Source of the DNA: Raillietiella orientalis
Taxonomy: Eukaryota
DNA: 47,060 nucleotides
Assembly: GCA_036172245.1 (NCBI GenBank)
Contig: JAYWIR010000118.1
Span: 62,001 to 109,060 of the forward strand
Direction of reading: 5' to 3'
Part shown: positions 924 to 41,822 of the stretch, piece by piece
Numbering within the stretch: the first letter of the stretch is position 1
Layout of the letters: each line of letters begins with the position of its first letter
Position numbers and translations under genes: made by a program
The notes under the pieces: generated by a model
The model's input: the letters and a program-made list of their open reading frames with translations, nothing else
The model's database searches: none
Told to the model about the DNA's origin: nothing

Positions 924-954
924 TTTTCACCCTGATTTCGCCGGGACGTTTATT
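924..954 (-). other. 3'-terminal AATAAA + stem-loop (element B)
   Basis: Element sense: aataaa cgtcccgg cgaaa tcagggtg aaaa. Confidence 0.8.
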
Positions 955-3274
955 GTAAAATAAACATTTACAAAGACGTGCGGTGGCTGGACCATTGCTC
1001 CAGCCACGCACGGAGAAACACAGAGCCTGCTGGGTCACCGGTTCGCAGACCGGTACGGTGAACCACGGCAGCAGGGGGGAGGGGGAAAAACTAAAACCAA
1101 AGCAAAAAAGAAAAGAAAAGTTGGGAGGATAAGGCAAGGGATCACCGTTGCTGGTGGGGCCGTTGCATCCTTTGCAGGATGCCGGCAAGCTCCTTCTGTA
1201 TCCCTGGATCCAGATGGGGCCATCAAGACGCCCTCCTCAGGAACTAGGAGGCTAACTGGATGGCACCCTGGTCGCGTTGACCTCCCGTAGCCTTGCTCCA
1301 AGCGGTGACGATCCAGCGTAGGCAGCACAAAGCTGATAACGAGGCCGCTGGCTGAAGGGCGTCGGCAACAAAGAGGGCTTTCAGTGCGTCCCTGGGGTTG
1401 CCGCAGGGGTTTCAAATGGCCGCGGCAAAGCGAAACCAAAGGGGCCGAAGGGCAACACAATCCACTAGCAGGAGGGGGAGGGAATCCCGTTCCCCACACC
1501 TGACGCAATTGGGGTCCACCGCTCCCCAGGTCCAGTGGTGACGGCACGCGTTGCAGGGGAGTCCCCAGTGCTGCAACAGGAGATCCGACTCATGCCATTT
1601 TAAGGGAATGGTGGAGGTGTTCATGAGCACCGGGGGCCACTTCAGACGTTCAATGGGAACGTCGAGCAGCGTGTTCCAGCGCAGAAGTCCATTGGGAGGC
1701 GTACTCGGGGTCGCAGCGTCTGTTAACTGGCCCGTCTTCCACTCTCCTATCTTCTTCTCCTTTCCGGAGATTGTTACTGTAACCAACCACTTCGCCGCAA
1801 CATCACTGTTCAGATCTTCCATAAGGGAGGGCAGCGCAGCAGCAAGGGGGGTTCTTCCTGCCCACGCCCTCTTCTTTGGATCCTCCAGGATATCGCGGAG
1901 CGTGCAACTTCTGTAACCCTTAAACAGAAACCTTCGTTCCTGTTGGGAGGGTTGCATGCCGAACTGTCCTTACGTTCGAACGGTTTCCTGCAACCAGAAA
2001 CTACCATTCAAAGGGCGACAGGTGAGCAATCCTGGGTTTTTCCGATACAGCGCAGCCACCCTCCGTAGCTGGAGTCCGCATCGGTTGACGCGGCGACGGA
2101 GTGCAAGAAACGACGTCAGTCCCGTCTTGCCGGTGTCTTGCTGGAGAAGGAGACGTGTGGGGATGCACCAACAGGTGCACCACAACTCTGGAACGAGTGC
2201 CGACAATCGGAACTGAAGCTGAAGCTCCAGCCGCTCCAGCGTCAGGAGGCCCAGACCACCATCCCGACGAGGAGCGCACAGGTCCTTTAAGCGGACTCGG
2301 GCCCTCCCGTTGCCCCACAGGGCGATACGGAGGAGGTCCTTTGTCCGCTTTCTAATTCTCTCTGTGGGGAGGCAAACAAAAAGCAGGGGGCGGAGGAGAG
2401 GAGCCGCGAACGTGTTCCAAACCGCGGCCCGTTCAGGCAGGAATCCCCTGCCGCCTCGGAACGGGCCGACCGCCGTTCCTACTGTCTGGAGGCAGCCGGA
2501 CCACGCTTCTGCAGGAGAGTAGTCCCCTAACGGCACACCAAGGTACTTGAAGTACCTCACCGTGGGGATTTCCAAACGGACCCAGTCCTGCTGCCGTGCC
2601 CACGCCGCACCAACTGGCTTCACGGACGACTTCGCTTTGTTCACCGTAAGTCCGGTTCCCCGATGCATTAGGTCGAAGAACTCCTCGACCGCCGAAGCCG
2701 GGGTGGACATAGGGAGCAGCAGCAGAAGTTCGTCCGCGTACGCTGAAACGGCCGGCGTACCGGCACAGTCGTGCGGCAGGTGCGAGAGAGTTCCCCTGTA
2801 CGCTCTCAGTACCTACTCATAGTAGGCACTGAAGAGCAAGGGGCTCAGGCTGTCTCCCTGCCGGATCCCACGCCGCATTGTCACGCCGTGCACGATCTGA
2901 ACGATGAAAGTAACGTTGATGAGCGCGTCGCGTCAGCAGGAGCGCAGATAGGCCACTAATGCGGCCGGGAAGCCCAAGCGTTCCAGAAGCTCCAGAAGGA
3001 GATTCTGGTCGACGCAATCGAATGCTTTCCGCAAGTCGATTGCGACCGCAAGGGCTCCCTCCCCCACCCGACCAACCAACCCCTTGCCGGCGCACGCACC
3101 GGAATTCCGGCTGCGCACCAAACTCTTTTCATGTTGGAGCTCTAGCCAGGTGGAAGCGTGGAACAGGTTCGCCTTCATGCTTCGCCCGGGAACAGCATAT
3201 GTCTGTTCCGGGCTGATGAAAATGTTGGCAACCCGTCCCAGACGCTCTGCCTAAACCTTTGCTAGCAACTTGGC
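924..3274 (-). mobile_element. Element B: 3' part of a LINE (RT core to 3' end), degenerate
   Basis: Minus-strand ORFs give AIDLRKAFD, GIRQGDSLSPLLF, YADE (2730-2741), FKYLGVPL, DGGLGL and the C-terminal CVRCGERDSLPLLLVDC. Stop at ~1142, then 3' UTR and terminal stem-loop at 924-954. Confidence 0.92.
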
Positions 3275-3291
3275 GTGCGGACGTGTTTTTT
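3275..3291 (+). promoter_or_regulatory. 5'-terminal motif GCGGACGTGTTTTT (element C), candidate internal promoter element
   Basis: Same motif at the 5' ends of H, K1, K2, J (variant) and L (variant). Confidence 0.55.
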
Positions 3292-5524: not shown

Positions 5525-5554
5525 TTGTCACCCGGGTGCGCCGGGGCGTTTATT
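5525..5554 (-). other. 3'-terminal AATAAA + stem-loop (element D)
   Basis: aataaa cgccccgg cgcac ccgggtg acaa. Confidence 0.85.
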
Positions 5555-8163: not shown

Positions 8164-10337
8164 TGGAGGCCAACCTGTTCCTCGCCAGTACATGGTGGCA
8201 GTTGCAACAAAGCGAAGACCAGGGAGGTCAAGAGAATCCTGGATTCTCCTCTGAGCAGGGAGGGGACGCCCTTTATGGAAGAGCCGCGCCCAGTGCCCTT
8301 GCGGTCGCAGTCGATCTGCGTAAAGCGTTCGATAGCGTCGACCAGGAACTGCTTCTGGAGCTCCTGGAACGCTTGGGATTCCCGGCCGTCTTCCGGGCTT
8401 ACCTGCGCTCCTGCTGGCGCTTCGCTCTAATCAACATCTCTTTTAGCGGCCGGCACGTGTACGGCGTGCCGGTTCGGCGTGGCATAAGGCAGGGTGACAG
8501 TCTGAGCCCCTTGCTGTTCAGCATCTACTTCGAGTTGGTTAGAGACGGGATGGGCCTCGAGGTGAACAGAGAGAAATCTTCCATCGTTACAACATCACCA
8601 CAACTATTCAACCATGCGGCGTGGGCCGGACGGCCGGACTGGATCCGCTTGGGGATCCCCACGGGCAGGTGCTTGAAGTACCTTGGCGTTCCGTTGGGGG
8701 ACTTCTGCGTTGCAGAAGCCTGGTCCGACCGTCTCCAAAAGGTGGAGTTGGCGATCGGCCCGTTCCGGAACAGCAAGTTTTACTTGCAGGAGCGGGCCGC
8801 GGTGTGGAACGCGTTCGCGGCCCCCCTCCTTCGCCCCTTACTTTTTGTTTGCTCCGCCCCTCCCATCATACAGAGACGGACCAAAGCCCTCTTGAGGACT
8901 GCCCTTTGGGGCACAGCGAGGTCGCGAGTCCGATTGAAAGACTTGTGCGCTCCACGCAGGGATGGTGGCTTGGGCCTCCTTACGTTGGAGCGCATCCAAC
9001 TTCGAACAACAATTCGAAAGTTAGCCCTTGCGGCTAGCTAATGGATGACGCCATTGTGCGATCCGGCACGGCTCCTCGCCAGAAGAGCGACCGGCTGCGA
9101 CGGATTGTCCTCGATCCTCGTGGCCTACCAGCGCAGCCTCTCCAACTGTGGCCCCGATTTGCGCCAGATGGTCGCCCTGATGACGGAGAATACCTGGATC
9201 TCCTGCATCCCCGCGAACTGCACTGCCTGGCTTCAGGAGTCAGCTTCCGCGTGGGCTAAGATCAACGGCACGAGCGAGGCGGAATACAACTGCCTACGAC
9301 GAGGACCGTACGCTCGACAGCCGCTGCAGGATATTATCAACACGCCCCGGATGTTTCTGTGGGCTTCTTTCAGTTCCCTTGTCCCCGTTCTGTCCTCCCT
9401 GAAAAACAGTAGGAGCAGCAACGAGCTGGCATCGTGGGAAGTGTCCTGCCTCATTCGAGGCAGGAAAAAACCTTTAAAGGGGTGGACGACTCGGGAGCTA
9501 ACGGACGCTGCCATCCAGAGCGTCCCGCCTCACGGACTTGCGCGCTGGGGAGTGCTGCTCGCGATACCTCCGGAGAAGGTGAAGTGGCCCCCAGCGTGTT
9601 GGGATTGCGCCACACTTCCGATGAAGTGGCAGGAGACGGCGTTGCTATTTCTGCACTGGGGACTGTTAAGCAGAGCACGCCTGTCTCACTGGACACTGGG
9701 AAATGTGGATGCCCGCTGTGTCGAGTGCGGAGAAAGAGAAACCTTCCCGCATCTCACCCTCGAGTGTGTCGCCCTGGATGGACTCTGGAGTCGAATCGCC
9801 CCAATCCTCCATCTTCCAGTAGGCGACCCTAAGGAAATTTACCGTCGCCTCTTTCTGCGTGACGGCCTGCGCCCCGCCGCGTCTCTAGCAGTCCTCTGCT
9901 GCGTGCGCGGCATTGTGCAAAGGTGGCACGCCAGAAGAAGAGGCCCAAGATGCAGGGACGCCATCCACTGGACGACGATCTCTTTAGAGACGGCGACAAG
10001 GTGGCGTCTACCTTTCAGAGTTAAAACAGAACTTGACTGCATTCTGAACAGGATGCTGAGGACCGACCCAGGCGCTCAGTGATCCCTTCCCTGCCCCCCC
10101 CCCTCTCCCCATAAAACTGTTTCCCTCCCCGTTATCTCTCTTTTTGTTTGTTTTTGTTCTAGTTTTCCTTTCCCATGCGCCTCGGGAATGGATCTAACCG
10201 GTCTATGCACCGGCAACAGACACGTCAACCAAGGTGGGAAAACCAATTGTTTCCCACAATTAACTTTTGAAAGACTTTATTATGTAATTTTTGTAAAAAA
10301 TTAGAATAATAAATGCCCCGGCATATCCGTATGGCAA
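8164..10337 (+). mobile_element. Element E: 5'-truncated LINE (RT to 3' end) lacking the YADD segment
   Basis: ORFs 8163-9041 and 9045-10082 (DLRKAFD, GIRQGDSLSPLLF, KYLGVPL, CVECGERETFPHLTLEC). Stop at 10082, then 3' UTR and stem-loop at 10308-10337. Confidence 0.92.
10308..10337 (+). other. 3'-terminal AATAAA + stem-loop (element E, degenerate 3' arm)
   Basis: aataaa tgccccgg catat ccgtatg gcaa. Confidence 0.75.
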
Positions 10338-12764: not shown

Positions 12765-12794
12765 TTCACACCCGGATGTGCCGGGGCATTTATT
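12765..12794 (-). other. 3'-terminal AATAAA + stem-loop (element G)
   Basis: aataaa tgccccgg cacat ccgggtg tgaa. Confidence 0.85.
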
Positions 12795-16219: not shown

Positions 16220-16250
16220 AATAAACGCCCCGGCGAAATCCGGGTAAAAA
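16220..16250 (+). other. 3'-terminal AATAAA + stem-loop (element H)
   Basis: aataaa cgccccgg cgaaat ccgggt aaaaa. Confidence 0.85.
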
Positions 16251-16416: not shown

Positions 16417-16447
16417 TTTACACCCGTGTACGCCTGGGGCGTTTATT
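16417..16447 (-). other. 3'-terminal AATAAA + stem-loop (element J)
   Basis: aataaa cgccccagg cgtac acgggtg taaa. Confidence 0.75.
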
Positions 16448-19760: not shown

Positions 19761-19790
19761 TCATCACCCGGTCTAGCCGGGGAGTTTATT
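19761..19790 (-). other. 3'-terminal AATAAA + stem-loop (element K1)
   Basis: aataaa ctccccgg ctaga ccgggtg atga, then the TSD. Confidence 0.85.
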
Positions 19791-20072
19791 AATAATAATA
19801 AGCTGGTCAGGGACAATGCCCCAACCAACAGAACGACAGAGAACACAGAAAATCTACCGGCACGCAGTCCTGTTAAACAAACCGCTCGCAGCGTGGGGGG
19901 AATGAGGGGAAACAAACAAAAATCAAAAACTGGGGGGAAGGGAAAAGGGTTTTTGGTTAGGCTCCGTACTCACGGGGACTTATACGATGAGCACCTGAAA
20001 TGTTCCGGAGCCTATATGGAGGCGGGTGTAAAAACAAAATACAAATTTAGTTTATGGAGGGTAGGGCAATGA

Positions 20073-23000
20073 TCACCGGGTTGGCCGCTGATGAGGGTGT
20101 GTAAACCGGCGGTGTATTGCGGCGAGATTCCTTTTTGTCTCCTCTGTCAAATGAGGCCATCTAGCGGATGCTCCCATGTAGAAGGATGCTTTGCTGATTA
20201 CCTCTTGGTACTATTCGTTAATTACCAACGCCTGGCGGACAAAAGCTATCGCGCGTATGCAACCGATGGTTGTAATCCTTGCGCTTAGTGACAGCCCGCT
20301 CGGCGTGAAGAATCGTCGCAGAAAGTCTCTTGCGGTGTCCACGGGATGCAATAGTGCTGTTGCCAGCCTACGCCACAGTCCTTGTAGGACACCGCAGTCC
20401 AGAAGTAGGTGCGGAATCGACTCCGTCGATCCGCACCGAACGCAGTTCGCAGACGCAAGTCCCCCGGAGTCACGATGCCAACGCTCGTTGCACTGAAAAC
20501 CCCAGTGAACGAAAAGCAGCACAACTTGTTTCCAAGGAAGAGGGAGCAGCGAACTGTCAATACACTGTGGAGGGACTACAAGTTCTTCGGAATTGACAGC
20601 AAGTTCTTCTGCCCACCATAGGAGTCCCTTTGCAGTAAAACGAGGAGTGGCGGCGTCCGCCAACTCACTCGTCTTCCAGGCGCCAAGGATTTTGGTTTTT
20701 CCCGCTATCGTGCAAAAAACCTCCCACCTCGCCGGTTGGTAACTGTCGTTTCTTGCCCTAAGGGCAGACAGCGCTGCGGCAAGAGGCATGGCAGCCAGGG
20801 TAGAAAACTTCACCTCGTCCTGCAGTACTTCTTCCAAGGATCGTGAAAAAAATTGACGCAGGGGCCGAAGATCCTCAGGGCGTATTCCTTGGATCGCCGA
20901 CCAGGATTCAACAGACTCCTGCCGCCAAGCTTCAAAGTTTATTGGGCGGCAGGAGATCCACGAGTGAGCATCCAGAAGTGCGGTCAACTGCCGCAAAGGA
21001 GACCCGAAACCCCGCTTCCTGTATTGAGTGCTCGGCAAAAGCGAGAGAAATCCCTAGCTGCCGGCGCATCTCCGCAGGAGAATGCGGGATGGCACACACA
21101 GGGGGGATGTCCATAGCTGGGCACACAGTGCCAGCAGTCGGAACTGCACCTGCAGTCCCATTCGCTCCATTGTCAAGATAAACAAACCAGCATTCCGACG
21201 CGGAGCTCACAAATCTTTAAGGCGGATTCTGGATCTCGCCGGACCCCAGAAAGCGTTCCTGAGCAGTCGTTTAGCCCGCTGTTTTGCCGCATAGGGGGGG
21301 TCAAAAACCAAAAACGGAGGACGGAGGAGGGGGGCCACAAAGGTGTTCCAAATAGTCGCCCGTTCCTGCAAGGTAAACTTGCCGTTAAAGAACTGGCTGA
21401 TGGCCAACTCTGCTTTCTGAAGACAGTCCGCTCACGCTTCGGCTGCGCCGAAAGCGCCCAACGGAACGCCAAGGTAATTAAAGTACCCGCCCGTGGGGAT
21501 CCCCAGGCGGATCCAGTCGGACTGCCCCTCCCACGACGTACCCACAGGAACGACCACGCTATTCTCTCTGTTCACGCTCACGCCCGCTCCCCGACGAATC
21601 AGGTCAAAGAAATCCTCGACACTGGACGCCGGGGTGGACATGGGAAGAATAAAAAGCAGGTCATCAGCGTAGGCGGCCACGGCAGGCGTTCCCGGGCAGG
21701 AGCTTGGCAACTGAGACAGCGTCAGCCTGTATGCTCTTAGCAGCAACTCAAAGAAGATGCTGAAGAGCAAGGGGCTTAAGCTGTCGCCCTGTCGGATGCC
21801 CTTACGAACGGGAATACCATACACGCGGCAGCCGCTGAAAGTAATGCACGTTAGCGCGTGGCGCCAGCACGCGCGCAAATACAGCAGGAGTTGCGCCGGG
21901 AACCCAAGGCGTTCCAGAAGCTCCAAAAGCAGCTTCTGGTATACGCAGTCGAACGCCTTGTGGAGATCGACCGCGACCGCCAAGGCACCTGGCGTTCCCT
22001 CCTGCCGTCGGCGCCTGTTCTTCTTGCCTGCGGCAGTGACTTTCGCAGCAGCCTGGCTTTGCTGCGCCACAACTTCCTGCAGCTGCATCCATGTACGCGC
22101 GAAAAGGATGTTCGCCTTCATGGATCGTCCCGGAACCGCGTAGGTTGGTTCCGGGCTCACCACAGATTCCGCGATACTTTCTAACCGCGCGACCCACAGC
22201 TTGGAAAACAACTTGACGTCCGAGTTCACCAAGGTGATCGGACACCAGTTGTTAAGTTGACGCAAGTCCCCGCCTTTCGGCAGGAGACGCCCCTTCGCTG
22301 AGCGGAAGGAATCCGGGACATTCCCGGATTCACTCATCAGCGTCGCGAGTTTCAGAATCAAGGGAATGAGGTCCACTTCAAAGCACTGATAAAACCCTGC
22401 AGGAAGCCCATCATCGCCTGGCGCCTTTCGTCTCTTCAGCCCAGCGTTGGCGTACGAAAATTCATCCGCCGTGAAAAGCTCGTTGAGACGTTCGCGTTCC
22501 TCCTCGCCGACAACACGAGCATCCTGAGACAGGAGTATCTCAGAAAGAATATCCTCCGTCAGGGATTCCGCGTACAGCGAGGAGTAGTAGCGTCTAACGA
22601 TGCGGTGTACTTCGGCTGGGGCCGAACATTCCTGGCCCTTGTCGTCCAACAAGCATGCTGCTCCGGACTGCCAGACCTGGCGCTCGGCCCTCGCCTTGTA
22701 CTCCGCAAGACGCTTGACATCCGCGTGTCTCGAAAACGTGCGGGCCTGCAGAAAGTCTCTACTGTTGGCCACGCCCTCTCCGAAACCGCGTGGAAGCCGG
22801 TGCAAGTGGAATTATCAACAGAATTCGCGGACAGATCTTTTGAGATCGTCCCAGTCCGCAAGTTCTTGAATGGCAAAGCCCCGGAGGTATCCACGTAGAT
22901 GCTCCGCAGCCTCCGGTTGGCTCAGCCAATCCGCCTCCATCCTCCAGCTTTGCAACGGAGGCCCCCTGCCTGGCGGAAGGATCTGAAACTCCAACCTGTG

Positions 23001-23666
23001 GTGGTCAGACAGCTCAGTCAACAATCTTTCTCTCCTGCCCACACGCGAATGCAGGTTTTCATCGAGGAAAACGTGATCGAGCGATCTTTCCATTCCAGGT
23101 TCGCTGACCATCAAGTTGGCGGCGGAAACGGACGCGCACATCTCGATGGGCAGCGCGCGCTCCCTCGGGCGGCTCCAATCGTCGGAGAGCAGGCGGACGT
23201 TGAAGTCCCCAGCGACGAGGTGCGCCACTTGGAAGCCGGAGTTGTTGAGCCACTGGCTCTGCACCTCACCAAAGAAAGCTACTCTTTCTTCGAGGTAGCG
23301 AGAGCCACTCGGCGCGTAGACGTTCGTAACGACGAGATCGATGGACTCGGACCACTTGATGACAAGCTGGCCTATCCGTCCATCGTCATCGAAACGAACA
23401 CTACGCACCGCTTCCGCCGTTTTTCCTCTTACGAGGAACGCGACGCCGCACGTGTGTGCGCCGTCGCACCGCCAATGTAGCGTTCCGCCTGCGCGCTCCT
23501 CGATTTCGGCTGCCTGCTCGTCGGAGATTACGTGAATCTCCTGCAGGAGCGCGAGGTCGAAGGGGCGCAGTGCGTTGGCTACTAATCGCCTCTTCTCGTC
23601 GTTCTGTAGTCCGTTCACGTTCCAACACGTTACGGACAGACGACGAGAAGACGCGATTCCCCGCAT
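20073..23666 (-). pseudogene. K1 ORF2 (APE endonuclease, reverse transcriptase, CCHC finger; ~1190 codons) with premature stops
   Basis: ORF pieces 22815-23666 (EN), 21432-22805 (RT with AAYADD), 21207-21407 and 20211-21038 (CVRCGSTESIPHLLLDC). Confidence 0.92.
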
Positions 23667-25492
23667 TACTGCTGGGAAGGTGGCGGCTTTTTGCTCGCTT
23701 TATCCGGCGAGCAGACGGCGAGTAGCACGACTGGCTGGAGAGGACGGTCGCCACCGTCCTCTGTTGTGCTGCATGCATGTAATGCCTCCACGCCAGGCTG
23801 AATTCCGTCGGGTTTCGTGGAGACTTCGCGTTGCTTCGCGGCGAGCGTTGCCTGGCTGCCTACTTTTGATCGGCGCGCACACGCTTTCGAACGAGTTGTC
23901 CTCGTCTCGGTGATCGGAACGGCATCCATTTCGGAGTTCGACCGGCGCATGTTCGATCGGGTTTCGGCCTTCCGCGGAGCAGTGACAGGTTCTGCTGGAT
24001 TGACATCTGTCCTGTTTTCGTTTTCCGTCACCAGAGCATCGCTTTTGGTGACGGCTGCTTTCCCGGCGCGCGCGTTTTCAGCGTGCTCACGCGCAGAAGC
24101 ACGAGGGACCTTTGCTGAAGTCTTCTTTACTTCATTACGGTTCCTCACTTCGCGTGGCGCCGTAAATGGAGATTGTGCTCCATGGCCATCTTTGAAGCCA
24201 TCCGCGTCTTTGGACGGGAGCACTTTCGATGGCTCCGACACGCTCGTCATGGACGCTGCTTTCGGAAGGGCTTTTAATCCCTTCGTTGGCATGGCATCCG
24301 CGCCAGTCGACAGCTTGCTCTCCGACTGCGACGGCGTGAGATTTTTCTCCACTTTCGCGGTGTTCGATCGCGACGCGGATTTTTTTTTGCCGACTTTCGA
24401 AGTCGACACGGCACAACTTTTCTTACCCGATTTGGGCTTCTCAGCCACTGCAGGAGGTGTAGGAATGGATCTGACGGTACTGGAAGTGTCCTTACCGCCG
24501 TTGTCCATTGACGTCCCCGCCGGTTGCTCGAACTCCGAGAGAGCCGGGCGTGCTTGGGAAGGACAGCTATTGCGCCTAGGGGGACTTACCCTTGCCCCGG
24601 ATTCCCCGCACCCTTTCTTTTGCGGCTCCCCTGCCGCGAGAGGGGGTGCGCAGGGCTTCGCGTGCGAGGTTTCCTGCTGCTTTGGGGCGACATTCCGCCT
24701 CGCGTTTTTACCGAATTTCTGCCGTGGGGTCTCCAGGTTTTTCGCAGATTTTTTCTTCTTATCCGCGCTTTGTTTTTTAAAATGGAGCTCCGCGGCTGCC
24801 TTTTTTCGCAAAAGATCCGGGCAATTTTTCAATTGGTGCCCGGATAGTTTGCAATAACGGCATTTTCCAGAGGGGCATTTATCCAAACAATGCCCCTCCT
24901 TCCCGCATTGCTCGCACGTTTTTACTTTGCCCACGAACCACAGGTGAACGACCGTGTCATTCACCTGTAGTTTGGTAGGCAGCAGACGGCGGTCCGGCAT
25001 TGTAAGCCGGGCTCCAGCGACTCCGCTGTGTATGGACGGGAAGTCCTTGAGGTTGCTACGCACCCTCCACAGCGCATGGACCGTGGCGAATTTCGCCAAC
25101 GCGTTCCGAATATCAGTATCGGAGATTTCCGACTCGATGTCGAAAATCTCCACCACAAATGAGTCGTCCATGGCGGCCGGGAAGACCTTCTGGCCACGGA
25201 TCGACAACGGGGTGCGCAGCAAGCGTTGCACAAGTGCAGCGTCTTTGCAACGCACCTTGAAATAGCCCATGTCTTTTACGGGCATAATGGTGAGAAGGTC
25301 CTCCTCCCGCACGCCAACACGGGTCAGTTCATCGTTGAACTGATTCCCGTCGCGCGCAGAAAGAAAACCACTCACCTTATATCGGAGAGGAGGTCTATAG
25401 CCTTGGGCTTCGTATGCCCGCAACTCCGACTCGTCAAGTGGTTTCCCTTCGACGGCTGCTGTGGCAGCAACGTCAGCAAAACTCCTCTCCAT
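23666..25492 (-). CDS. K1 ORF1 protein (608 aa open; the N-terminal extension seen in K2 is cut by a TAG near 25506)
   Basis: CEQCGKEGHCLDKC and CRYCKLSGHQLKNC knuckles; near-identical to K2 ORF1. Confidence 0.8.
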   Translation of the reverse strand: MERSFADVAATAAVEGKPLDESELRAYEAQGYRPPLRYKVSGFLSARDGNQFNDELTRVGVREEDLLTIMPVKDMGYFKVRCKDAALVQRLLRTPLSIRGQKVFPAAMDDSFVVEIFDIESEISDTDIRNALAKFATVHALWRVRSNLKDFPSIHSGVAGARLTMPDRRLLPTKLQVNDTVVHLWFVGKVKTCEQCGKEGHCLDKCPSGKCRYCKLSGHQLKNCPDLLRKKAAAELHFKKQSADKKKKSAKNLETPRQKFGKNARRNVAPKQQETSHAKPCAPPLAAGEPQKKGCGESGARVSPPRRNSCPSQARPALSEFEQPAGTSMDNGGKDTSSTVRSIPTPPAVAEKPKSGKKSCAVSTSKVGKKKSASRSNTAKVEKNLTPSQSESKLSTGADAMPTKGLKALPKAASMTSVSEPSKVLPSKDADGFKDGHGAQSPFTAPREVRNRNEVKKTSAKVPRASAREHAENARAGKAAVTKSDALVTENENRTDVNPAEPVTAPRKAETRSNMRRSNSEMDAVPITETRTTRSKACARRSKVGSQATLAAKQREVSTKPDGIQPGVEALHACSTTEDGGDRPLQPVVLLAVCSPDKASKKPPPSQQ

Positions 25493-25648
25493 TGGCGAGA
25501 AAGACTAAGTGGAGGCGGCCGTCGGTTCCGCGATTGGAGATCCGGATGCTGTTCCTCCAACTTCGGTAGCTTCAAGTTGGGTCGACATCGTCGTCAAAGT
25601 GTACGACGCCAAGATGAAGCGGATGAAAGCACGGAGACGAGAGCGAAG

Positions 25649-25666
25649 AAAAACACGTCCGCACTC
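25649..25666 (-). promoter_or_regulatory. 5'-terminal motif GAGTGCGGACGTGTTTTT (element K1)
   Basis: Begins immediately after the TSD. Confidence 0.6.
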
Positions 25667-25675
25667 GATTGAAAT
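25667..25675. repeat. 9-bp TSD gattgaaat, copy 2 of 3 (between K1 and K2)
   Basis: Sole spacer between the K1 5' end and the K2 3' end. Confidence 0.9.
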
Positions 25676-25705
25676 TTATCACCCGGTCACGCCGGGGCGT
25701 TTATT
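25676..25705 (-). other. 3'-terminal AATAAA + stem-loop (element K2)
   Basis: aataaa cgccccgg cgtga ccgggtg ataa, then the TSD. Confidence 0.88.
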
Positions 25706-25988
25706 AATAATAATAAACTGGTCAGGGACAATGTCCTTAACCAACAGAACGACAGAGAACATAGAAAAATTACCGGCACGCAGGCCTGGTAAACAAACCG
25801 CTCGCAGCGTGGGAGGAATGAGGGGAAACAAACAAAAATCAAAAACTGGAGGGAAGGGTAACGGGTTTTCGGTTAGGCTCCGTACTCACGGGGATTTAAA
25901 CGATGAGCACCTAAAATGTTCCGGAGCCTATGGGGACGCGGGTGTAAAAAGAAAATACAAAAATAGTTTATGGAGGGTAGGGCAATGA

Positions 25989-28900
25989 TCACCGGGTTGG
26001 CCGCTGCTGAGCGTGTGTAAACCGGCGGTGTATTGCGGCGGGAATCCTCTTTGTCTCCTCTGTCAAATGAGGCCATCTAGATGATGATCCCATGTAGAAG
26101 GATGCTTTGCTGATTACCTCTTGGTGCTGTCCGTTGATTACCAACGCCTGGCGGACGGAAACTATCGCGCGTATGCAACCGATGGTTGCAATCCTTGCGC
26201 ATAGTGAAAGCCCGCTCGGCGTGAAGAATCGTCGCAGCAAGTCTCTTGCGGTGTCCACGGGATGCAATAGTGCTGTTGCCAGCCTACGCCACAGTCCTTG
26301 TAGGACACCGCAGTCCAGAAGTAGGTGCGGAATCGACTCCGTCGATCCGCACCGAACGCAGTTCGCAGACGCAAGTCCCCCGGAGTCACGATGCCAACGC
26401 TCGTTGCACTGAAAACCCTAGTGAACGAAAATCAGCACGTCTTGTTTCCAAGCAAGGGGGAGCAGCGAACTGTCCATACACTGTGGAGGGACTACAAGTT
26501 CTTCGGGGGTGACAGCAAGTTCTTCTGCCCACCGGAGGAGTCCCTTTGCAGTAACACGAGGAGTGGCGGCGTCCGCCAACTCACTTGTCTTCCAGGTGCC
26601 AAGGAGTTTGGTTTTTCCCGCTATCGTGCAGGAAACCTCCCACCTCGCCGGTTGGTAACTGTGGTTTCTTGCCCTGAGGGAGACAGCGCTGCGGAAAGAG
26701 GCGTGGCAGCCAGGGTAGAAAACTTCACCTCGTCCTGCAGTACTTCTTCCAAGGATCGTGGAAAAAATTGGCGCAGGGGGCGAAGATCTTCAGGGCGTAT
26801 TCCTTGGAACGCCGCCCAGGATTCAACAGACTCCTGCCGCCAAGCTTCAAAGTTCATTGGGCGGCAGGAGATCCACGAGTGTGCTTCCAGAAGTGCGGTC
26901 AACTGCCGCAATGGAAACCCGAAACCCCGCTTTCTGTATTGAGTGCCCGGCAGAAGCGAGAGAAATCCTCCGCTGCCGGCGCATCTCCGCAGGAGAATGC
27001 GAGCTGGCACACACAGGGGGGATGTCCATAGCTGGGCACACAGTGCCAGCAGTCGGAACTGCACCTGCAGTCCGATTCGCTCCATTGTCAGGATACCCAA
27101 ACCAGCATCCCGACGCGGAGCTGACAAATCTTTAAGGCGGATCCTGGATCTCGCCGGACCCCAGAGAGCGTTCCTGAGCAGGCGCTTAGCCCGCTGTTTT
27201 GCCGCATAGGGGGGGTCCAAAACAAAAAACAGGGGACGGAGGAGGGGGCCACAAAGGTGTTCCAAATAGTCGCCCGTTCCTGCAAGGTAAACTTGCCATT
27301 AAAGAACGGGCTGATGGCCAACTCTGCTTTCTGAAGACAGTCCGCCCACGCTTCGGCTGCGCCGAAAGCGCCCAACGGAACGTCAAGGTACTTAAAGTAC
27401 CCGCCCGTGGGGATCCCCAGGCGGATCCAGTCGGACTGCCCCTCCCACGACGTACCCACAGGAACGACCACGCTCTTCTCTCTGTTCACGCTCACGCCCG
27501 CTCCCCGAAGAATCAGGTCGAAAAAATCCTCGACACTGGACGCCGGGGTGGACATGGGGAGCAGAAGAAGCAGGTCATCATCGTAGGCGGCCACGGCAGG
27601 CGTTCCCGGGCAGGAGCTTGGCAAGTGAGACAGCGTCAGCCGAATGCTCTTAGCATCAACTCAAAGAAGATGCTGAAGAGCAACGGGCTTAAGCTGTCGC
27701 CCTGTCGGATGCCCCTACGAACGGGAATACCATACACGCGGCAGCCGCTAAAAGTGATGCAGGTTAGCGCGTGGCGCCAGCACGCGCGCAAATACAGCAG
27801 GAGTTGCGCCGGGAACCCAAGGCGTTCCATAAGCTCCAAAAGCAGCTTCGGGTTTACGCAGTCGAACGCCTTGTGGAGATCGACCGCGACCGCCAAGGCA
27901 CCTGGCGTTCCCTCCTGCCGTCGGCGCCTGTTCTTTTTGCCTGCGGCAGTGACTTTCGCAGCAGCTTGGCTTTGCTGCGCCACAACTTCCTGCAGCTGCA
28001 TCCATGTACGCGCGAAAAGGATGTTCGCCTCCATGGATCGTCCCGGACCCGCGTAGGTTTGTTCCGGGCTCACCACAGATTCCGCTATTCTTCCTAACCG
28101 CGCGACCCACAGCTTGGAAAACAACTTGACGTCCGAGTTCACCAAGGTGATCGGACGCCAGTTGTTAAGTTGGCGCAAGTCTCCGCCTTTCGGCAGGAGA
28201 CGCACCTTCGCTGAGCGGAAGGAATCAGGGACATTCCCGGATTCACTCATCAGCGTCGCGAGTTTAAGCATCAAGGGAATGAGCTCCACTGCAAAGCACT
28301 GATAAAACTCTGCAGGGAGCATATCCTCGCCTGGCGCCTTTCGTCTCTTCAGCCCAGCGATGGCGGACGAAAATTCATCCGCCGTGAAGGGCTCGTCGAG
28401 ACGTTCGCGTTCCTCCTCGCCGACAACACGAGCATCCTGAGACAGGAGTATCTCAGAAAGAATATCCTCCGTCGGGGATTCCGCGTAGAGCGAGGAGTAG
28501 TAGCGTCTCACAATGCGGCGTACTTCGGCTGGGGCCGAACATTCCTGGCCCTTGTCGTCCAACAGGCATGCTGCTCCGGACTGCCAGACCTGGCGCTCGG
28601 CCCTCGCCTTGTACTCTGAGAGACGCCCGACATCCGCGCGTCTCGAAAACGTGCGGGCCTGCAGAAAGTCTCTACTGTTGGCCACGCCCTCTCCGAAACC
28701 GCGTGGAAGCCGGTGCAAGGGGAATTGGCAACAGAACTCGTGGACAGATCTTTTGAGATCGTCCCAGTCCGCAAGTTCTTGAATGGCAAAGCCCCGGAGG
28801 TATCCACGTAGATGCTCCGCAGCCTCCGGTTGGCTAAGCCAATCCGCCTGCATCCTCCTGCTTTGCAACGGAGGCCCCTGCCTGGCGGAAGGATCTCAAA

Positions 28901-29578
28901 CTCCAACCTGTGGTGGTCAGAAAGCTCAGTCAACAATCTTCCTCTCCTACCCACACGCGAATGCAGGTTTTCATCGAGGAAAACGTGATCGAGCGATCTT
29001 TCCATTCCAGGTTCGCTGACCATCAAGTTGGCGGCGTGAACGGACGCGTACATCTCGATGGGCAGCGCGCGCTCCCTCGGGCGGCTCCAATCGTCGGAGA
29101 GCAGGCGGACGTTGAAGTCCCCAGCGACGAGGTGCGCCACTTGGAAGCCGGAGTTGTTGAGCCACTGGCTCTGCACCTTACCAAAGAAAGCTACTCTTTC
29201 TTCGAGGTAGCGAGAGCCACTCGGCGCGTAGACGTTCGTAACGACGAGATCGATGGACTCGGACCACTTGATGACAAGCTGGCCTATCCGTCCGTTGTCA
29301 TCGAAACGAACACTACGCACCGCTTCCGCCATTTTTCCTCTTACGAGGAACGCGACGCCGCACGTGTGTGCGCCGCCGCACCGCCAATGTAGCCTTCCGC
29401 CTGCGCGCTCCTCGATTTCGGCTGCCTGCTTGTCGGAGATCACGTGAATCTCCTGCAGCAGCGCGAGGTCGAAGGGGCGCAGGGCGTTGGCTACTAATCG
29501 CCTCTTCTCGTCGTTCTGCAGTCCGTTCACGTTCCAACACGTTACGGACAGACGACGAGAAGACGCGATTCCCCGCAT
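25989..29578 (-). pseudogene. K2 ORF2 (EN-RT-CCHC) with frameshifts and YADD>YDDD
   Basis: ORF pieces 28508-29578, 27636-28868, 27088-27624, 26621-27265 and 25989-26267. Confidence 0.92.
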
Positions 29579-31500
29579 TACTGCTGGGAAGGTGGCGGCT
29601 TTTTGCTCGCTTTATCCGGCGAGCAGACGGCGAGCAGCACGACTGGATGGAGGGGACGGTCGCCACCGTCCTCTGTCGTGCTGCATGCATGTAATGCCTC
29701 CACGCCAGGCTGAACCGCGTCGGGTTTCGTGGAGACTTCGCGTTGCTTCGCGGCGAGCGTTGCCTGGCTGCCTACTTTTGATCGGCGCGCACACGCTTTC
29801 GAACGAGTTGTCCTCGTCTCGGCGATCGGAACGGCATCCATTTCGGAGTCCGACCGGCGCATGTTCGATCGGGTTTCGGCCTTCCGCGAAGCAGTGACAG
29901 GTTCTGCTGGATTGACAGCTGTCCTGTTTTCGTTTTCCGTCACCAGAGCATCGCTTTTGGTGACGGCTGCTTTCCCGGCGCGCGCGTTTTCAGCGTTCTC
30001 ACGCGCAGTTGCACGAGGGACCTTTGCTGAAGTCTTCTTTACTTCATTACGGTTCCTCACTCCACGTGGCGCCGTAAATGGAGATTGTGCTCCATGGCCA
30101 TCTTTGAAGCCATCCGCGTCTTTGGACGGGAGCACTTTCGATGGCTCCGACACGCTCGTCATGGACGCTGCTTTCGGAAGGGCTTTTAATCCCTTCGTTG
30201 GCATGGCATCCGCGCCAGTCCAGAGCTTGCTCTCCGACTGCGACAGTGTGAGATTTCTCTCTGCTTTCGCGGTGTTGGATCGCGACGCGGATTTTTTTTT
30301 GCCGACTTTCGAAGTCGACACGGCGCAACCCTTCTTACCCGATTTGGGCTTCTCAGCCACTGCAGGAGGTGAAGGAATGGATCTGACGGTACTGGAAGTG
30401 TCCTTACCGCCGTTGTCCATTGGCGTCCCCGCCGGTTGCTCGAACTCCGAGAGAGCCGGGCGTGCTTGGGAAGGACACCTATTGCGCCTAGGGGGACTTA
30501 CCATTGCCCCGGATTCCCAGCACCCTTTCTTTTGCGGCTCCCCTGCCGCGAGAGGGGGTGCGCAGGGCTTCGCGTGCGAGGTTTCCTGCTGCTTTGGGGC
30601 GACATTCCGCCTCGCGTTTTTACCGAATTTCTGCCGTGGGGTCTCCAGGTTTTTCGCAGATTTTTTCTTTTTATCCGCGCTTTGTTTTCCAGGATGGAGC
30701 TCCGCGGCTGCCTTTTTTCGCATGAGATCCGGGCAATTTTTCAATTGGTGCCCGGATAGTTTGCAATAACGGCATTTTCCAGAGGGGCATTTATCCAAAC
30801 AATGCCCCTCCTTCCCGCATTGCTCGCACGTTTTTACTTTGCCCACGAACCACAGGTGAACGACCGTGTCTTTCACCTGTAGTTTCGTGGGCAGCAGACG
30901 GCGGTCCGGCATTGTAAGCCGGACTCCAGCGACTCCGCTGTGTATGGACGGGAAGTCCTTGAGGTTGCTACGCACCCTCCACAGCGCATGGACCGTGGCG
31001 AATTTTGCCAACGCGTTCCGAATATCAGTTTCGGAGATTTCCGACTCGATGTCGAAAATCTCCACCACAAATGAGTCGTCCATGGCGGCCGGGAAGACCT
31101 TCTGGCCACGGATCGACAGCGGGGTGCGCAGCAAGCGTTGCACAAGTGCAGCGTCTTTGCAACGCACCTTGAAATAGCCCATGTCTTTTACGGGCATAAT
31201 GGCGAGAAGGTCCTCCTCCCGCACGCCAACACGGGTCAGTTCATCGTTGAACTGATTCCCGTCGCGCGCAGAAAGAAAACCACTCACCTTATATCGGAGA
31301 GCAGGTCTATAGCCTTGGGCTACGTATGCCCGCAACTCCGACTCGTCGAGTGGTTTCCCTTTGACGGCTGCTGTGGCAGCAACGTCAGCAAAACTCCTCT
31401 CCATTGGCGAGAAAGACGAGGTGGAGGCGGCCGTCGGTTCCGCGATTGTAGATCCAGATGCTGTTCCTCCAACTTCAGTAGCTTCAAGTTGGGTCGACAT
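29578..31500 (-). CDS. K2 ORF1 protein, intact 640 aa (MSTQLEATEV...PPPSQQ), gag-like with two CCHC knuckles
   Basis: Uninterrupted frame from the ATG at 31500 to the TAA overlapping the ORF2 ATG. Confidence 0.88.
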   Translation of the reverse strand: MSTQLEATEVGGTASGSTIAEPTAASTSSFSPMERSFADVAATAAVKGKPLDESELRAYVAQGYRPALRYKVSGFLSARDGNQFNDELTRVGVREEDLLAIMPVKDMGYFKVRCKDAALVQRLLRTPLSIRGQKVFPAAMDDSFVVEIFDIESEISETDIRNALAKFATVHALWRVRSNLKDFPSIHSGVAGVRLTMPDRRLLPTKLQVKDTVVHLWFVGKVKTCEQCGKEGHCLDKCPSGKCRYCKLSGHQLKNCPDLMRKKAAAELHPGKQSADKKKKSAKNLETPRQKFGKNARRNVAPKQQETSHAKPCAPPLAAGEPQKKGCWESGAMVSPPRRNRCPSQARPALSEFEQPAGTPMDNGGKDTSSTVRSIPSPPAVAEKPKSGKKGCAVSTSKVGKKKSASRSNTAKAERNLTLSQSESKLWTGADAMPTKGLKALPKAASMTSVSEPSKVLPSKDADGFKDGHGAQSPFTAPRGVRNRNEVKKTSAKVPRATARENAENARAGKAAVTKSDALVTENENRTAVNPAEPVTASRKAETRSNMRRSDSEMDAVPIAETRTTRSKACARRSKVGSQATLAAKQREVSTKPDAVQPGVEALHACSTTEDGGDRPLHPVVLLAVCSPDKASKKPPPSQQ

Positions 31501-31560
31501 CGTCGTCAAAATGTACAACGCCAAGATGAAGCGGATGAAAGCACGGAGACGAGAGCGAAG

Positions 31561-31578
31561 AAAAACACGTCCGCACTC
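31561..31578 (-). promoter_or_regulatory. 5'-terminal motif GAGTGCGGACGTGTTTTT (element K2)
   Basis: Begins immediately after the TSD. Confidence 0.6.
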
Positions 31579-31587
31579 GATTGAAAT
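31579..31587. repeat. 9-bp TSD gattgaaat, copy 3 of 3
   Basis: Abuts the K2 5' end and continues into host EN (AHLIAGDFN on the minus strand). Confidence 0.9.
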
Positions 31588-32046
31588 CTCCCGCTATCAG
31601 GTGAGCCTTCCGCACGTTCGTGTCCGCCAGCCAGTCGCGCTTCAGGGAATCCAGCAGCCTCGTACGGTCGCTGTATCCCTGTTTACCGCTGGGGGCGTAC
31701 ACATTCGTGACGATCAATTCGATCGAGTCGGACCAGCTGAGAATCAGCTGACCGACCCGAGCGTCGTCATCGAAGCGCACGCCCTTCACGGCCGCGTCGA
31801 TGGCCGGCTTCACGAAGAACGCGACCCCGCAGGTGTTGCGGAGGCCGCACCCCCAATACAGCCGACCCCCCGCGATCGTCTCGATCTCCTGGGCGTCTGC
31901 CGCGGTGATCACGTGGATCTTCTGCAGCAGGGCCAGGTCGAGCTCACGCAGGGTGTCGGCCGTATCTCGCCTGTTACCGTCGTCGCGCAGCCCGTTGACG
32001 TTCCAACAGGCGGCGCGAATCCGACGGCGACTGGCGAGCCCAGGTG

Positions 32047-33891: not shown

Positions 33892-33901
33892 GCCTTGGAG
33901 G
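33892..33901. repeat. Target site duplication of element J (gccttggagg), right copy
   Basis: Matches 16407-16416. Confidence 0.85.
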
Positions 33902-34160: not shown

Positions 34161-34164
34161 GTGC

Positions 34165-35539: not shown

Positions 35540-35569
35540 TTGTCACCCGGATATGCCGGGGCATTTAAT
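35540..35569 (-). other. 3'-terminal ATTAAA + stem-loop (element N)
   Basis: attaaa tgccccgg catat ccgggtg acaa. Confidence 0.85.
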
Positions 35570-38170: not shown

Positions 38171-38171
38171 C

Positions 38172-39871
38172 GTGCCACGTTGTTGCGATAAGAGCGCCTT
38201 TATCCAGTCCGTCTTTGCTGAAGAAGCGTCGAAGCAGGTCTGTGGCAGTGTCCTGAGGACGACCAAGTGCCGAAGCAAGTCTCCGCCATAACTCCCGCAA
38301 GTCACTACACTCAAGGAGCAGGTGCGTAAGCGATTCTATCGCCCCGCACCTGAGGCAGTTTGGGGAGACGACTCCCCCTGTAACCAAGTTTCTGCGCTTA
38401 TTACACTGGAATCCCCAGTGCAGAGAAGAAACTTCCTGTTTCCATCGAAGCGGAAACACGGAGCTGTCCACACACAAGGAAGGGACCACGAGATCTTCAA
38501 GGAGTAATCCAAGAACCTCAGTCCAACGAAGAAGTCCCTTTGTCAGGTAACAAGTAGTGGCAGCGTCTACCAACACGCTCGTTCTGCAGCCGCTCAGCAG
38601 TCTCTTACTCCTGCAATGCTGCAGAAGAACTCCCACCTTGCCGGTTGGCTACTGTCGTTGTTTGCCTTGAGAGCAGACAGCGCTGCGGCGATGGGTGAGA
38701 CGACTATCCGGGACCAAAGCGACCAGTCCTGTAGGATCACTCCTGGCGGTTCGCGTAAGAGGCCCTATAAGTGTCGCAGTTGCTCTAAGCGCACATCCAA
38801 AGCGGACGTCCAGTGCTCCAGAGCTTCCTGCAGCCAAGCATTTCAATTAAAGGGGCGGCAGGAAATCCAGGAATGGGCTAACAGCAACGAGGACAAATGC
38901 CTCAGTGGGTAGCCAAATCCAGTTCTCCGGCGAAGGTTGCAAGGCAGCAACGAAAGCAATCCTGCACTGCCGACACATCGCTGGAGAATATGAGAAGCCG
39001 GAGCACACCAGTGACTAGACCACAATTCTCCACATAGGGATAGAAGCCGGAACTGCACTTGCAGTCCAATCTTCTGGATGGTCAGGATGCCTAGGCCTGC
39101 GTCCTAGCATGGCGCCACCAAATCTTTGGAGCGAACCCTGGATCGCGCAGCGCCCCACAAGACCTTACGTAGGAGACGCTGCCCCCGGAGTTTAACCACA
39201 TAGGAAGGCTGGCAAACAAAAAATAAGGGGCGGAGGAGGGATGCAAGGAAAGTGTTCCATATGCACGCCCTTTCCGGTAAGACGAACTTGCCTTCCAAGA
39301 ACGGGCCTACAGCCATCTCTGCCTTTTGAAGACAGGCCGACCACGATTCAGACGAGCAGAAGTCGCCCAACGGTACGCCAAGGTACTTGTAGCACCTGAA
39401 CGTGGGGATCCCCAGGCGAATCCAGTCGGCCTGTCCCTTTCACGACGCACCCACCGGCACGACGGAGCACTTCGCCCTGTTAACGCTCATGCCCGCTCAA
39501 CGACGGATCAGCTCGAAGAAGTCTTGGACCGAGTCCGGCGGAGTAGACATGGGCAACAGAAGCAGAAAGTCGTCGGCATATGCTGCCGCGAACGCAGTGC
39601 ACGGAGAGGTGATGGGCAGGACGGCCAGCGTCACCCTGTACGCTTTTAGCACCAACTCAAAGTAGATGCTGAAGAGCAACGGGCTTAAGCTGTCGCCCTG
39701 TCTGATGCCTCTGCGCAAGGCCACTCCGTACACGCGGGAGCCACTGAAATACAAGTTGATAATCGCGTGACGCCAGCAGAAGCGCAAGTACAGGAGAAGA
39801 TGATTCGGAAGCCCAAGACGCTCCAGGAGCTCCAAGAGGAGTTACTGGTTTACGCAGTCAACCGCTTTGCG
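38172..39871 (-). mobile_element. Element O: internal ORF2 fragment (RT RKAVD to CCHC finger), lacking both termini
   Basis: GIRQGDSLSPLLF, AAYADD and CLRCGAIESLTHLLLEC. No 3' UTR or stem-loop at the left end. Confidence 0.9.
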
Positions 39872-41792
39872 TGCTCCAGGGTGGATGCGTTTTCTCGGTG
39901 CTCCTCGTGCCAGGAAGTCTCACCCACTGCAAGCGTCGTGTGGTTCGGTGGTCGATCAGGCAGCGATGCCTGACGCGATTACCAGGGATGGCCAGAGGGC
40001 AGCGAACACGCCACCCCCAGAGGCGATAAAGAGCCAGGGGGCGGCGGCAACGTCACCATCAGAGGCGATAAAGGTGGGGGCATATGCCCCCACAGAATCG
40101 GTCCCCGCTGCAGCGCCGGCGTGGAGAGCCGTTGTGTCGGCGCCAACGCCTGCAGCCGCGGCGGAATTGTCGGCCTATGTAGAGTAGGGGTACAAACCCT
40201 CATTGTTCTACAAGGTAGGCAATTTATATTCTTTAGAGAGCGCGCGCGCCTTCTCGAAGGGCAAGCCCGCTCTCGATGTGAAAGAGCAGGAGCTCAGCGC
40301 TATGACCATCCGCAGCGGGGGTCAGTACGTTCAGGTCATCTGCAAACAAGCAGAGCTGGCCCAACGACTGCTTAAAACCCCCGTTGTGATGGGGACGCGC
40401 AGGCTCCTCCCCACTACGGCGGACCGCAGCATGGTGGTCCACCTGTTAGGCGTAACCGCGCGAATGCGCAAAGAACAGGTTCGCGCCGCTTTGGAACAGT
40501 TCGGAACGGTCCACGCGCAGTGGACGAAAGTAAGTATTTTCGAGGACTACACGGGGCTGCAACACAACCTCACTGCTACGCGCGTGACCGTTTGGGAGGG
40601 CTGCACTCTTCCCCACAAACTGGTTGTCAAAGGCGAAACCGTCGACTTCTGGTATGTGGGGAAGCCGAAATACTGTGGCTTCTGCAATAGGTCGGGCCAC
40701 CTCAAAAGGAGGTGTCCCAATGTGCAGTGCCAAGTATGCGGAACCATGGGACACACGAGGGAGGTGTGCCCTAAAGCAGCAGTGTGGGTGGTTTCCAAGA
40801 GAAACCTTCAAAAACGTGCCCGGCTTCTGCAGAAAAGGCTGGCAGCGAAAGCTAAAGCAAAAGCTGTGCCACCCGGGCCCAAGGGCCAGGCCGCACCCGA
40901 GACCCCTGCGACCAACTTCGAACAAGTCGAAGGAACAAACCAGGAGCCTGGGTGGCGGGTGGCTACGGCCAAAAAATCAAAGAAGGATTAAAGGATGGAG
41001 AAAAAGCTCACGTACCGTCAGAAAAAACAGCAGGCAAGCGAGCAAATTAAAGAATGCAGCGTTGTCGCCGTGCATATTCTCGACCGCTGCGAAAGAGAAA
41101 TCGCCGCTACCGTCGACCACACCTCTGTTGAATCTGTCAACAGCGAGGGGAGCGAGCCGGCGGGGGCGTCCGTCATCGACACCACCACCGATGACGTAGC
41201 CTTCGCGCGAGCCGCGGAGGAGCTGGCAGCCTCGTTGCAGCCGGAACCCTCCAAGGCTGGCAAGAAGGCCGTAAAGCGTCCGGCCTCCACTCGGGAGTCC
41301 CCGACTTCCAACCTCGAGGTGGAAACCGGAAGCGCAGCCTCCGTTTTCACGGCAACGCGCAAGAAGGCTGCACGTAAGTCCACAAAGCCAAGGAAGCTCG
41401 TCTCCCCCGTCGAAGGGGAAAAAAGGCTCCCGCAAGCGAGGGTGCCATGAGCGTGGGAAACTCTCGGGACCCGTCGCCCGAGAGACTCCCACGCGCGGAC
41501 ACGGAGGGGATGCAGGGGGTGGAAGCCGAACAGGTGCTTCAGGTGCTTGAGAAGGCCGAAACCCCCATGGACATCCCGCCTGCCTCGCAAGAGGAGGGCT
41601 CCCACACACCTTAATCTTCCCAGCAGTAATGCCGGGAATCTCCTCCCGCGGTCGACTGCGCATCGCCGTTTGGAACGTGAACGGCATGACAGACGTCGGA
41701 AAAAGATGAGACATGGTCGCCCTACAGGAGTTCTACCACCTTGCGCTGCTGCAGAAGATCCACGTGAACTCTGCACAACAAGCGCAAGAGAT
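39872..41792 (+). mobile_element. Element L: 5' part of a LINE (5' UTR, ORF1, start of EN), interrupted by element P
   Basis: ORF 40203-40991 has WYVGKPKYCGFCNRSGHLKRRC and CQVCGTMGHTREVC. TAATG at 41627-41631, followed by WNVNG and LQKIH. Confidence 0.92.
39966..41629 (+). pseudogene. Element L ORF1 with in-frame stops
   Basis: ATG at 39966 (MPDAITRD...); stops at 40187, 40991 and 41450; homologous terminal stop at 41629. Confidence 0.8.
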
Positions 41793-41822
41793 TTCTCACC
41801 CGGTCACGCCGGGGCGTTTATT
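41793..41822 (-). other. 3'-terminal AATAAA + stem-loop (element P)
   Basis: aataaa cgccccgg cgtga ccgggtg agaa. Confidence 0.85.

Follow-up and report, generated by a model that had tools for sequence, protein, structure and literature searches.

Tail-less 3′ ends beside a conserved predicted hairpin in L1-type LINEs of Raillietiella orientalis

How does a retrotransposon define its 3′ end if it carries no A tail? The question is raised by a 47,060-nucleotide stretch of the Raillietiella orientalis genome (contig JAYWIR010000118.1, positions 62,001 to 109,060 of the forward strand; "the window" below), which is a pile of nested fragments of long interspersed nuclear elements (LINEs). These elements are of L1 type, but the poly(A) or simple repeat that is usual, though not universal, at the 3′ end of the L1 clade is missing from nearly all of them. 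They end a few nucleotides past a short GC-rich inverted repeat that follows AATAAA and is predicted to form a hairpin. Our analysis suggests that the copying enzyme may locate its start by the shape of the RNA rather than by an A tail.

The terminal motif marks ORF2 ends throughout the genome

An initial annotation of the window had described ten such termini. All ten were found, eight on the minus strand and two (10337 and 16250) on the plus strand:

924..954, minus strand: 3′ terminus of the CGAAAT-loop family, two stem changes; antisense at the reverse transcriptase (RT) motif KAFD of a sister copy
5525..5554, minus strand: 3′ terminus with CGCAC loop, exact match; lies antisense within the endonuclease region of a sister copy
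10308..10337, plus strand: 3′ terminus, CATAT loop, 3′ arm decayed
12765..12794, minus strand: 3′ terminus with CACAT loop, exact match; lies in sense orientation within ORF1 of a sister copy
16220..16250, plus strand: 3′ terminus, CGAAAT loop, last base of the stem changed
16417..16447, minus strand: 3′ terminus, GCGTAC-type loop, decayed; element split by K1/K2, upstream copy of its target-site duplication at 33901
19761..19790, minus strand: 3′ terminus of K1 with CTAGA loop; lies in sense orientation at GDFN of the host endonuclease
25676..25705, minus strand: 3′ terminus of K2, CGTGA loop, exact
35540..35569, minus strand: 3′ terminus, CATAT loop, ATTAAA variant; no target-site duplication established
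41793..41822, minus strand: 3′ terminus with CGTGA loop, exact match; lies antisense within the endonuclease region of a sister copy

The proposed motif, AATAAAYGCCCCGG-N-CCGGGTG, is present exactly in four of them (5525, 12765, 25676 and 41793), while the other six deviate by one to a few changes. The terminus at 35540 reads ATTAAA instead of AATAAA, the 3′ arm is broken at 10337, and the loop at 16417 is absent from the annotation's list. In the 210-Mb genome the exact motif has 1,501 matches compared to 0 for a reversed control pattern, and a loose pattern has 4,633 compared to 440. Thirty loci were picked by the zinc domain of ORF2 alone, and in 25 of them the terminus lies approximately 420-660 nt downstream of this domain; four others have no terminus and are read as interrupted or truncated, and one carries a much decayed form. 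The motif marks ORF2 ends genome-wide. A metagenome scan gave two exact matches, neither of which is followed by NNAA or linked to ORF2 at E <0.02. Two loci, L131 and L132 (G000:C106), belong to a lineage with a more distant zinc domain; in L132 a much decayed terminus lies about 800 nt downstream of the domain, followed by the start of another element.

The annotation had also assigned the elements to an L1/Tx1-like lineage, and their L1 type is supported by an ORF1 and an ORF2 with APE endonuclease, RT and C-terminal zinc domain. PF03372 and PF00078 score above the cut-off in frames of the window, and PF13966 scores below it there but passes it at other loci of the genome. Of the relatives with a solved structure, human L1 ORF2 protein (ORF2p) scores best with E 1e-43, compared to 1e-16 for R2, and the nearest homologues are 28-31% identical. 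In an RT tree (FastTree, 51 rows without a non-L1 outgroup) the three sequences from this genome form one long branch (1.14). No named Tx1 sequences were among the homologues returned. The elements appear to work like stringent-type LINEs and carry L1 anatomy; we leave their placement at broad L1. Intact ORF2 frames of 1,203 and 1,217 amino acids are present, others measuring 1,198-1,212 amino acids, which indicates that several families were recently active:

L054:1623-5231, minus strand: intact ORF2 frame
L066:2627-6277, minus strand: intact ORF2 frame

The elements end four nucleotides past the stem

The element end can be read from target-site duplications (TSDs). For 143 termini, exact 12-mers that are repeated upstream begin at offsets 0-6 past CCGGGTG in 0, 0, 1, 7, 27, 22 and 19 cases. 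Of 45 best upstream repeats, 39 begin at offsets 2-6, with 25 at +4, and the control is flat. TSD length is 12-16 bp in 42 of 43 pairs, 12 being the floor of the method. The annotation's estimate of an end about 4 nt past the stem is thus borne out by the peak at +4, and the elements end in TG-NN-AA. In exact termini +3 is A in 107 of 109 and +4 in 106 of 109, and +1 and +2 are variable; part of this set stems from a family-enriched search, and three of its loci were selected for their A runs. In the window itself TSDs support 25676, with its copy at 31587, and 16417, with its copy at 33901 (10/12), whereas 19761 shares only 9 bp. No TSD could be established in the window for the element at 35540; a candidate copy at 41247 (11/12) was rejected because the site falls within a continuous ORF1.

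The TSD-bounded inserts (49 of 190 termini, a small share of the genome total) range from 35 bp to 5.9 kb and are 5′-truncated copies of target-primed reverse transcription, as in the L1 clade. The two target bases preceding the TSD are never AA (0/49), and therefore the terminal AA comes from the template. The first TSD base is A in 19 inserts, T in 15, C in 12 and G in 3; with A in only 19 of 49, most primers are unable to pair with poly(A). All 33 inserts of at least 423 nt cover ORF2; the 16 shorter ones cannot reach it, and most of them read as 3′ UTR (by eye). No partner short interspersed nuclear element (SINE) was recognised among the 49. Very short inserts are seen at L059, L087, L023 and L206 (35-78 bp, one of them hairpin plus tail only) and are apparently aborted copying events. 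The termini carry no terminal microsatellite repeat of the kind that serves as priming site in L2/UnaL2; the TSD begins at +4. We also considered 3′ transduction, but best upstream repeats starting at least 9 nt past the stem are no commoner than in the control (6 vs 11).

A tails are rare but can be copied

According to the annotation no A tail is copied, which is nearly correct: A7 occurs within 8 nt in only 3 of the 1,501 exact termini, and in one of these the A run belongs to the TSD. About seven copies, however, carry A7-A15. They were obtained with a wider pattern that gave 15 distinct loci, of which seven were kept as LINE termini; six were dropped with an A run well past the end and two without AATAAA context and family homology. 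In all seven the A run begins 0-1 nt past the stem. Two copies have a true A tail (T+A12 or T+A15) with an 11-bp TSD outside it. In the first, L158, family homology starts 14 nt from the TSD start; the second, L206, consists of the hairpin, T and A12 only. The A tail is missing from more than 99% of DNA copies yet can be copied. A loss of A runs during assembly is ruled out, since other copies keep runs of A12-A15. The rare true A-tailed copies indicate that the RNA is probably polyadenylated next to the stem, 22-25 nt past AATAAA, and they disfavour a poly(A)-independent form of the 3′-processing signal suggested earlier.

The 3′ UTRs share a structured layout

The 3′ UTRs had been regarded as unalignable between families. 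This does not hold: a common layout can be aligned, consisting of a U-rich tract, a hairpin H1 with a CTGCGN loop, a second hairpin H2, an AU-rich stretch, AATAAA and the terminal hairpin. The element ending at 924 shows the parts upstream of the poly(A) signal:

959..965, minus strand: GTTTATT, which can pair with AATAAAC of the 924 terminus, an example of a paired poly(A) signal
983..1007, minus strand: hairpin H2, variable in sequence, with a stem that covaries across families
1037..1054, minus strand: inner stem of hairpin H1 with CTGCGA loop

Thirty-five UTR ends were aligned. Selection was by a recognisable H1 and, in most cases, by an exact terminus, which biases the counts towards structure. 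Two-sided changes are present in 6/6 inner pairs of H1 and 8/9 pairs of H2, which was reached by 0 of 500 shuffles, and 86% of cells are paired compared to 27-42% in slid controls; these figures are inflated by relatedness and row selection. H1 and H2 are therefore 3′ hairpins with compensatory changes, as expected for a stringent LINE, and the terminal hairpin is not. AATAAAY can be paired with upstream sequence over at least six of its seven nucleotides in 32 of 60 dereplicated termini, with shuffle means of 8.3 and 13.2 (maxima 15 and 21). Alternatively, this excess might presumably be due to a U-rich upstream enhancer. In HIV-1, AAUAAA held in a hairpin represses polyadenylation (PMC2645353).

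The arms of the terminal motif are complementary and fold into a stem of 5-7 bp, often with one bulged C, at approximately −9 kcal/mol; pairing and function of this putative hairpin are deduced from the sequence. The only variable pair alternates between C-G and U-G (27 and 8 of 35). The annotation had described a conserved stem with a varying loop. The stem is indeed kept across families with ORF2s as low as 53% identical (two families compared), but the loop is constrained to C-R-Y-R-H (46, 49, 50 and 50 of 52). CpG-type double mutants in the stem comprise 14 compensatory and 17 non-compensatory cases (by eye); an excess of compensatory changes was sought and rejected (6 vs 6 of 70 and 8 vs 11 of 98, by eye). 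Single mutants are spread over many loop types and no family has fixed a stem change, which fits decay after insertion. A kissing interaction between the H1 loop and the terminal loop was rejected as well (mean helix 2.875 vs 2.869 in shuffled sequences, p = 0.51; 48 representatives, some with H1 misplaced).

Rfam returned no family at gathering score in the window, only sub-threshold chance matches around one terminus, and the histone 3′-end stem-loop RF00032 has no match there. The hairpins of histone type in the host, which score below the Rfam cut-off, have a different sequence from the terminal hairpin. Weak matches of this type recur every 4.3 kb at G000:C8:5222965-5235898, which is probably a cluster of histone genes. 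Several contigs carry dispersed 18S rRNA fragments.

Each family has its own target

The TSD start is specific to each family. Tx1-clade elements show target preference (Kojima 2015, PMC4494074), and the families described here share this trait in having family-specific sites. The CGAAAT family has 122 pattern matches, nearly all with AAAA followed by TCGA. Approximately 46 of its 100 listed insertions match a 13-nt site antisense to the RT motif KAFD (by eye), and the 17-nt form of the site makes up 368 of 10,086 GCASTCGAR sites. In this family, conservation of the target extends to the side of the nick with which the RNA cannot pair, GCAS preceding TCGA (by eye), and this conservation before the nick implicates the endonuclease. 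Altogether, 49 of 187 flanks lie within the ORF2 of a sister copy, at positions that cluster family by family; part of this enrichment could come from the grouping of copies in repeat islands and from survival bias.

Inside sister LINEs each family lands at sites of its own. The insertions are often antisense, and conserved catalytic motifs are frequently hit (KAFD of the RT, GDFN of the endonuclease, just past LQEIH). Such insertions were seen in the window for 924, 5525, 10337, 16417, 19761, 35540 and 41793, and at other loci of the genome. At L103, L106 and L119 the match of the flank to the RT hot spot extends over 14 nt, after which other sequence follows (in L103 the start of another element); this suggests that the same site is used repeatedly.

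A proposed fixed-register start and its rivals

The reading that we favour, with a probability of about 0.5, is that the structured 3′ UTR of this L1-type LINE radiation acts as a cis signal for the elements' own ORF2p, which would start copying in a fixed register. The signal would comprise H1, H2, the often-paired poly(A) signal and the terminal hairpin. Cleavage and polyadenylation of the RNA would take place no more than about 4 nt from the terminal stem, 22-25 nt past AATAAA. ORF2p would grip the hairpin by sequence and shape, with its active site 4 nt, sometimes 5, past the stem, and the endonuclease would nick a family-specific motif. Copying would then start at the nick, two A's into the tail, without need for an A:T duplex. 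The new copy would end in TG-NN-AA with a TSD of 12-16 bp, and the rest of the tail would be ignored except in rare slips. The near-invariant A at +3 and +4 next to variable +1 and +2 is as expected if the A's are renewed in every cycle. The initial annotation had taken the hairpin as an RT-recognition or precise-priming signal; precise priming is the best reading, and the lack of covariation in the terminal stem speaks against it. In human L1, unpairing the template stem-loop gives heterogeneous start points (PMC10830416).

Several observations weigh against a fixed-register start. For human L1 ORF2p a template stem-loop may help to define the start, but about 20 A's are needed past the stem (Thawani, PMC10830416) and about 4 matched primer bases (Monot 2013, PMC3649969), and the enzyme here would have to differ. 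Folding of the terminal stem is only modest (z +0.6 to −2.2), and 6 of its 7 pairs are invariant in the 35 aligned UTR ends, without covariation. The jitter that unpaired priming on poly(A) should produce is almost absent, with an extra A before TCGA in 0 of the 100 listed CGAAAT copies (by eye). Position +5 is an A that the target lacks in 4 of 38 pairs, where about 4 chance pairs are expected; these 4 are mostly in families whose targets start with A, and a transcript running past the element end explains them equally well. Finally, the A-tailed copies verified by a TSD number only two.

Such a transcript is the core of the main rival explanation, which is possible but clearly less probable and in which the RNA runs into the parental TSD and pairs with the nicked matching site, and this pairing fixes the junction in a manner similar to R1Bm. 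The poly(A) signal would be weak or paired, as in the 32 of 60 dereplicated termini, the hairpin would be looped out, and the A-tailed copies would stem from a minority of RNAs cut at +4. This would explain why the junctions are nearly perfect, with hardly any jitter, and why the preferred site is long (the 13-nt site in about 46 of 100 listed insertions, the 17-nt form in 368 of 10,086). R1Bm is described, second-hand, as needing downstream target sequence (PMC7265360). Distances between elements and between their TSDs are correlated in 18 copies (Mantel r = 0.33, p = 0.03), but the signal is missing in a second family (r = 0.06, p = 0.36, n = 7) and is confounded by copy age. Pairing does not account for target conservation on the side that the RNA cannot reach, off-site insertions share little beyond TCGA and still end at +4, and the tails of A-tailed copies begin 0-1 nt from the stem. 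An inherited, RNA-guided target memory is unlikely. Here the paired poly(A) signal and the terminal hairpin would push 3′ processing past the element end, and the parental TSD tag of the transcript would pair at the matching site of a sister LINE. If true, it would account for both the tail-less +4 junction and the 13-nt landing site of each family, and target choice would be inherited from copy to copy via the flanking RNA plus the endonuclease.

Slightly less probable still is that the RNA itself ends at +4, either deadenylated to a protein-protected stub or cut as in histone mRNAs, which end 4-5 nt past their stem, and that the RT copies the unpaired 3′ end. The fixed 4-nt overhang with almost no jitter would agree with trimming, and A-tailed copies could represent untrimmed RNAs; but the near-invariant AATAAA at canonical distance indicates ordinary polyadenylation, and neither the Rfam search nor the host histone-type stem-loops, with their different sequence, provide a match. 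We regard it as very improbable that the CCCGG-N5/6-CCGGG dyad forms no hairpin and is read as primary sequence, as a termination site or a site for protein binding to DNA or RNA, with RT recognition via H1 and H2 only. The stem without compensatory change, the constrained loop and the modest z-scores would be accommodated by this, whereas a spacer of 5 nt in some families and 6 nt in others, with a constant 4 nt between the 3′ arm and the element end, and a variable stem position alternating between C-G and U-G, argue for a paired structure.

Other features of the window

Two full-length elements, K1 and K2, occupy the centre of the window:

19761..25675, minus strand: K1, full-length element; ORF1, endonuclease, RT and zf-RVT in broken frames
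21435..22811, minus strand: RT frame of K1 (PF00078)
22818..23699, minus strand: APE endonuclease frame of K1 (PF03372)
25676..31587, minus strand: K2, full-length element, in tandem with K1
29581..31593, minus strand: ORF1 of K2, without Pfam match

K1 and K2 (19761-31587) are 95.7% identical and lie head to tail at one site, which reflects either re-insertion into a regenerated target or a tandem duplication. Features of the ORF1 of K2 resemble zf-CCHC / ZCCHC3-type clusters, which is only a lead on membership of the Tx1 clade. The word GACGTG is found a few bases from the 5′ end of full-length copies, usually followed by a T-rich run (25640-25675 and 31552-31587 of the window, minus strand; also L052, L056 and L088). 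We presume a likeness to the downstream promoter element of insect LINEs, though the word is unusually near the element start. At 37262-38176 about 900 bp without LINE match interrupt the ORF2 end of the element at 38181-39895.

Comparison with known systems

No description of a terminus of this kind was found in the literature searched, whose coverage left Repbase and most subscription journals outside. Among the closest known systems are stringent L1 elements of plants and algae. A covarying 3′ hairpin is reported for a monocot L1 lineage (1a / LINE1-1_ZM with ZmSINE2/3; Ohshima 2012, PMC3472496; 2013, PMC3747384), and in Chlamydomonas a SINE and the LINE L1-1_CR share a tail (PMC3472496, PMC3747384). 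Both belong to the L1 clade and have a 3′ hairpin with compensatory changes and a conserved loop, a description that H1 fits. A poly(A) end is found in L1-1_CR and in nearly all L1 families of flowering plants, whereas only two A's are copied here; families without a 3′ repeat number 9 of 233 in plants and 5 of 15 in algae (table in PMC3472496). The elements described here differ further by an additional, sequence-invariant hairpin past AATAAA, and no partner SINE was seen among the 49 inserts.

UnaL2, of the L2 clade, depends for its copying on a 3′ stem-loop that has a single bulged C, and copying begins in a (UGUAA)n repeat (Nomura 2006, PMC1636434). Initiation just 3′ of a stem-loop is common to both systems, and the predicted terminal stem also has one bulged C; but in UnaL2 the loop is the recognised part, while here no repeat is present, the stem is invariant and ORF2 is of L1 type. 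Human L1 ORF2p has the same domain order, and differs in that the start lies 4 nt past the stem here, with 30 of 49 targets lacking an initial A. Family-specific targets, including insertion into other transposons, are shared with site-specific LINEs of the Tx1/R1 clades (Tx1L, R1Bm, SART1), for which internal initiation and target pairing have been reported (PMC4494074, PMC7265360); unlike these, many sister families here use one common terminus and different sites inside each other. Zepp and ZeppL are likewise L1 elements that insert into copies already present and form clusters (PMC8226300), but Zepp ends in poly(A) (table in PMC3472496), and here many families target one another on many contigs.

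Recognition of a 3′ hairpin in L2 and plant L1 elements and tail-less L1 families are already known. Initiation this near the stem without a tail, as judged from the copies in the genome, would set these elements apart from human L1, for which ORF2p structures imply a short A:T duplex in addition to the roughly 20 A's between a template hairpin and the start. Across many families and thousands of copies, the L1-type enzyme here appears to begin 4 nt away from a hairpin, and most of its primers are unable to pair with poly(A). The short cis signal together with the intact ORF2 frames makes it directly testable how L1-type RTs choose their start point and whether stringent recognition is ancestral in the L1 clade, and precise, site-specific, tail-less insertion is relevant to retrotransposon-based gene insertion.

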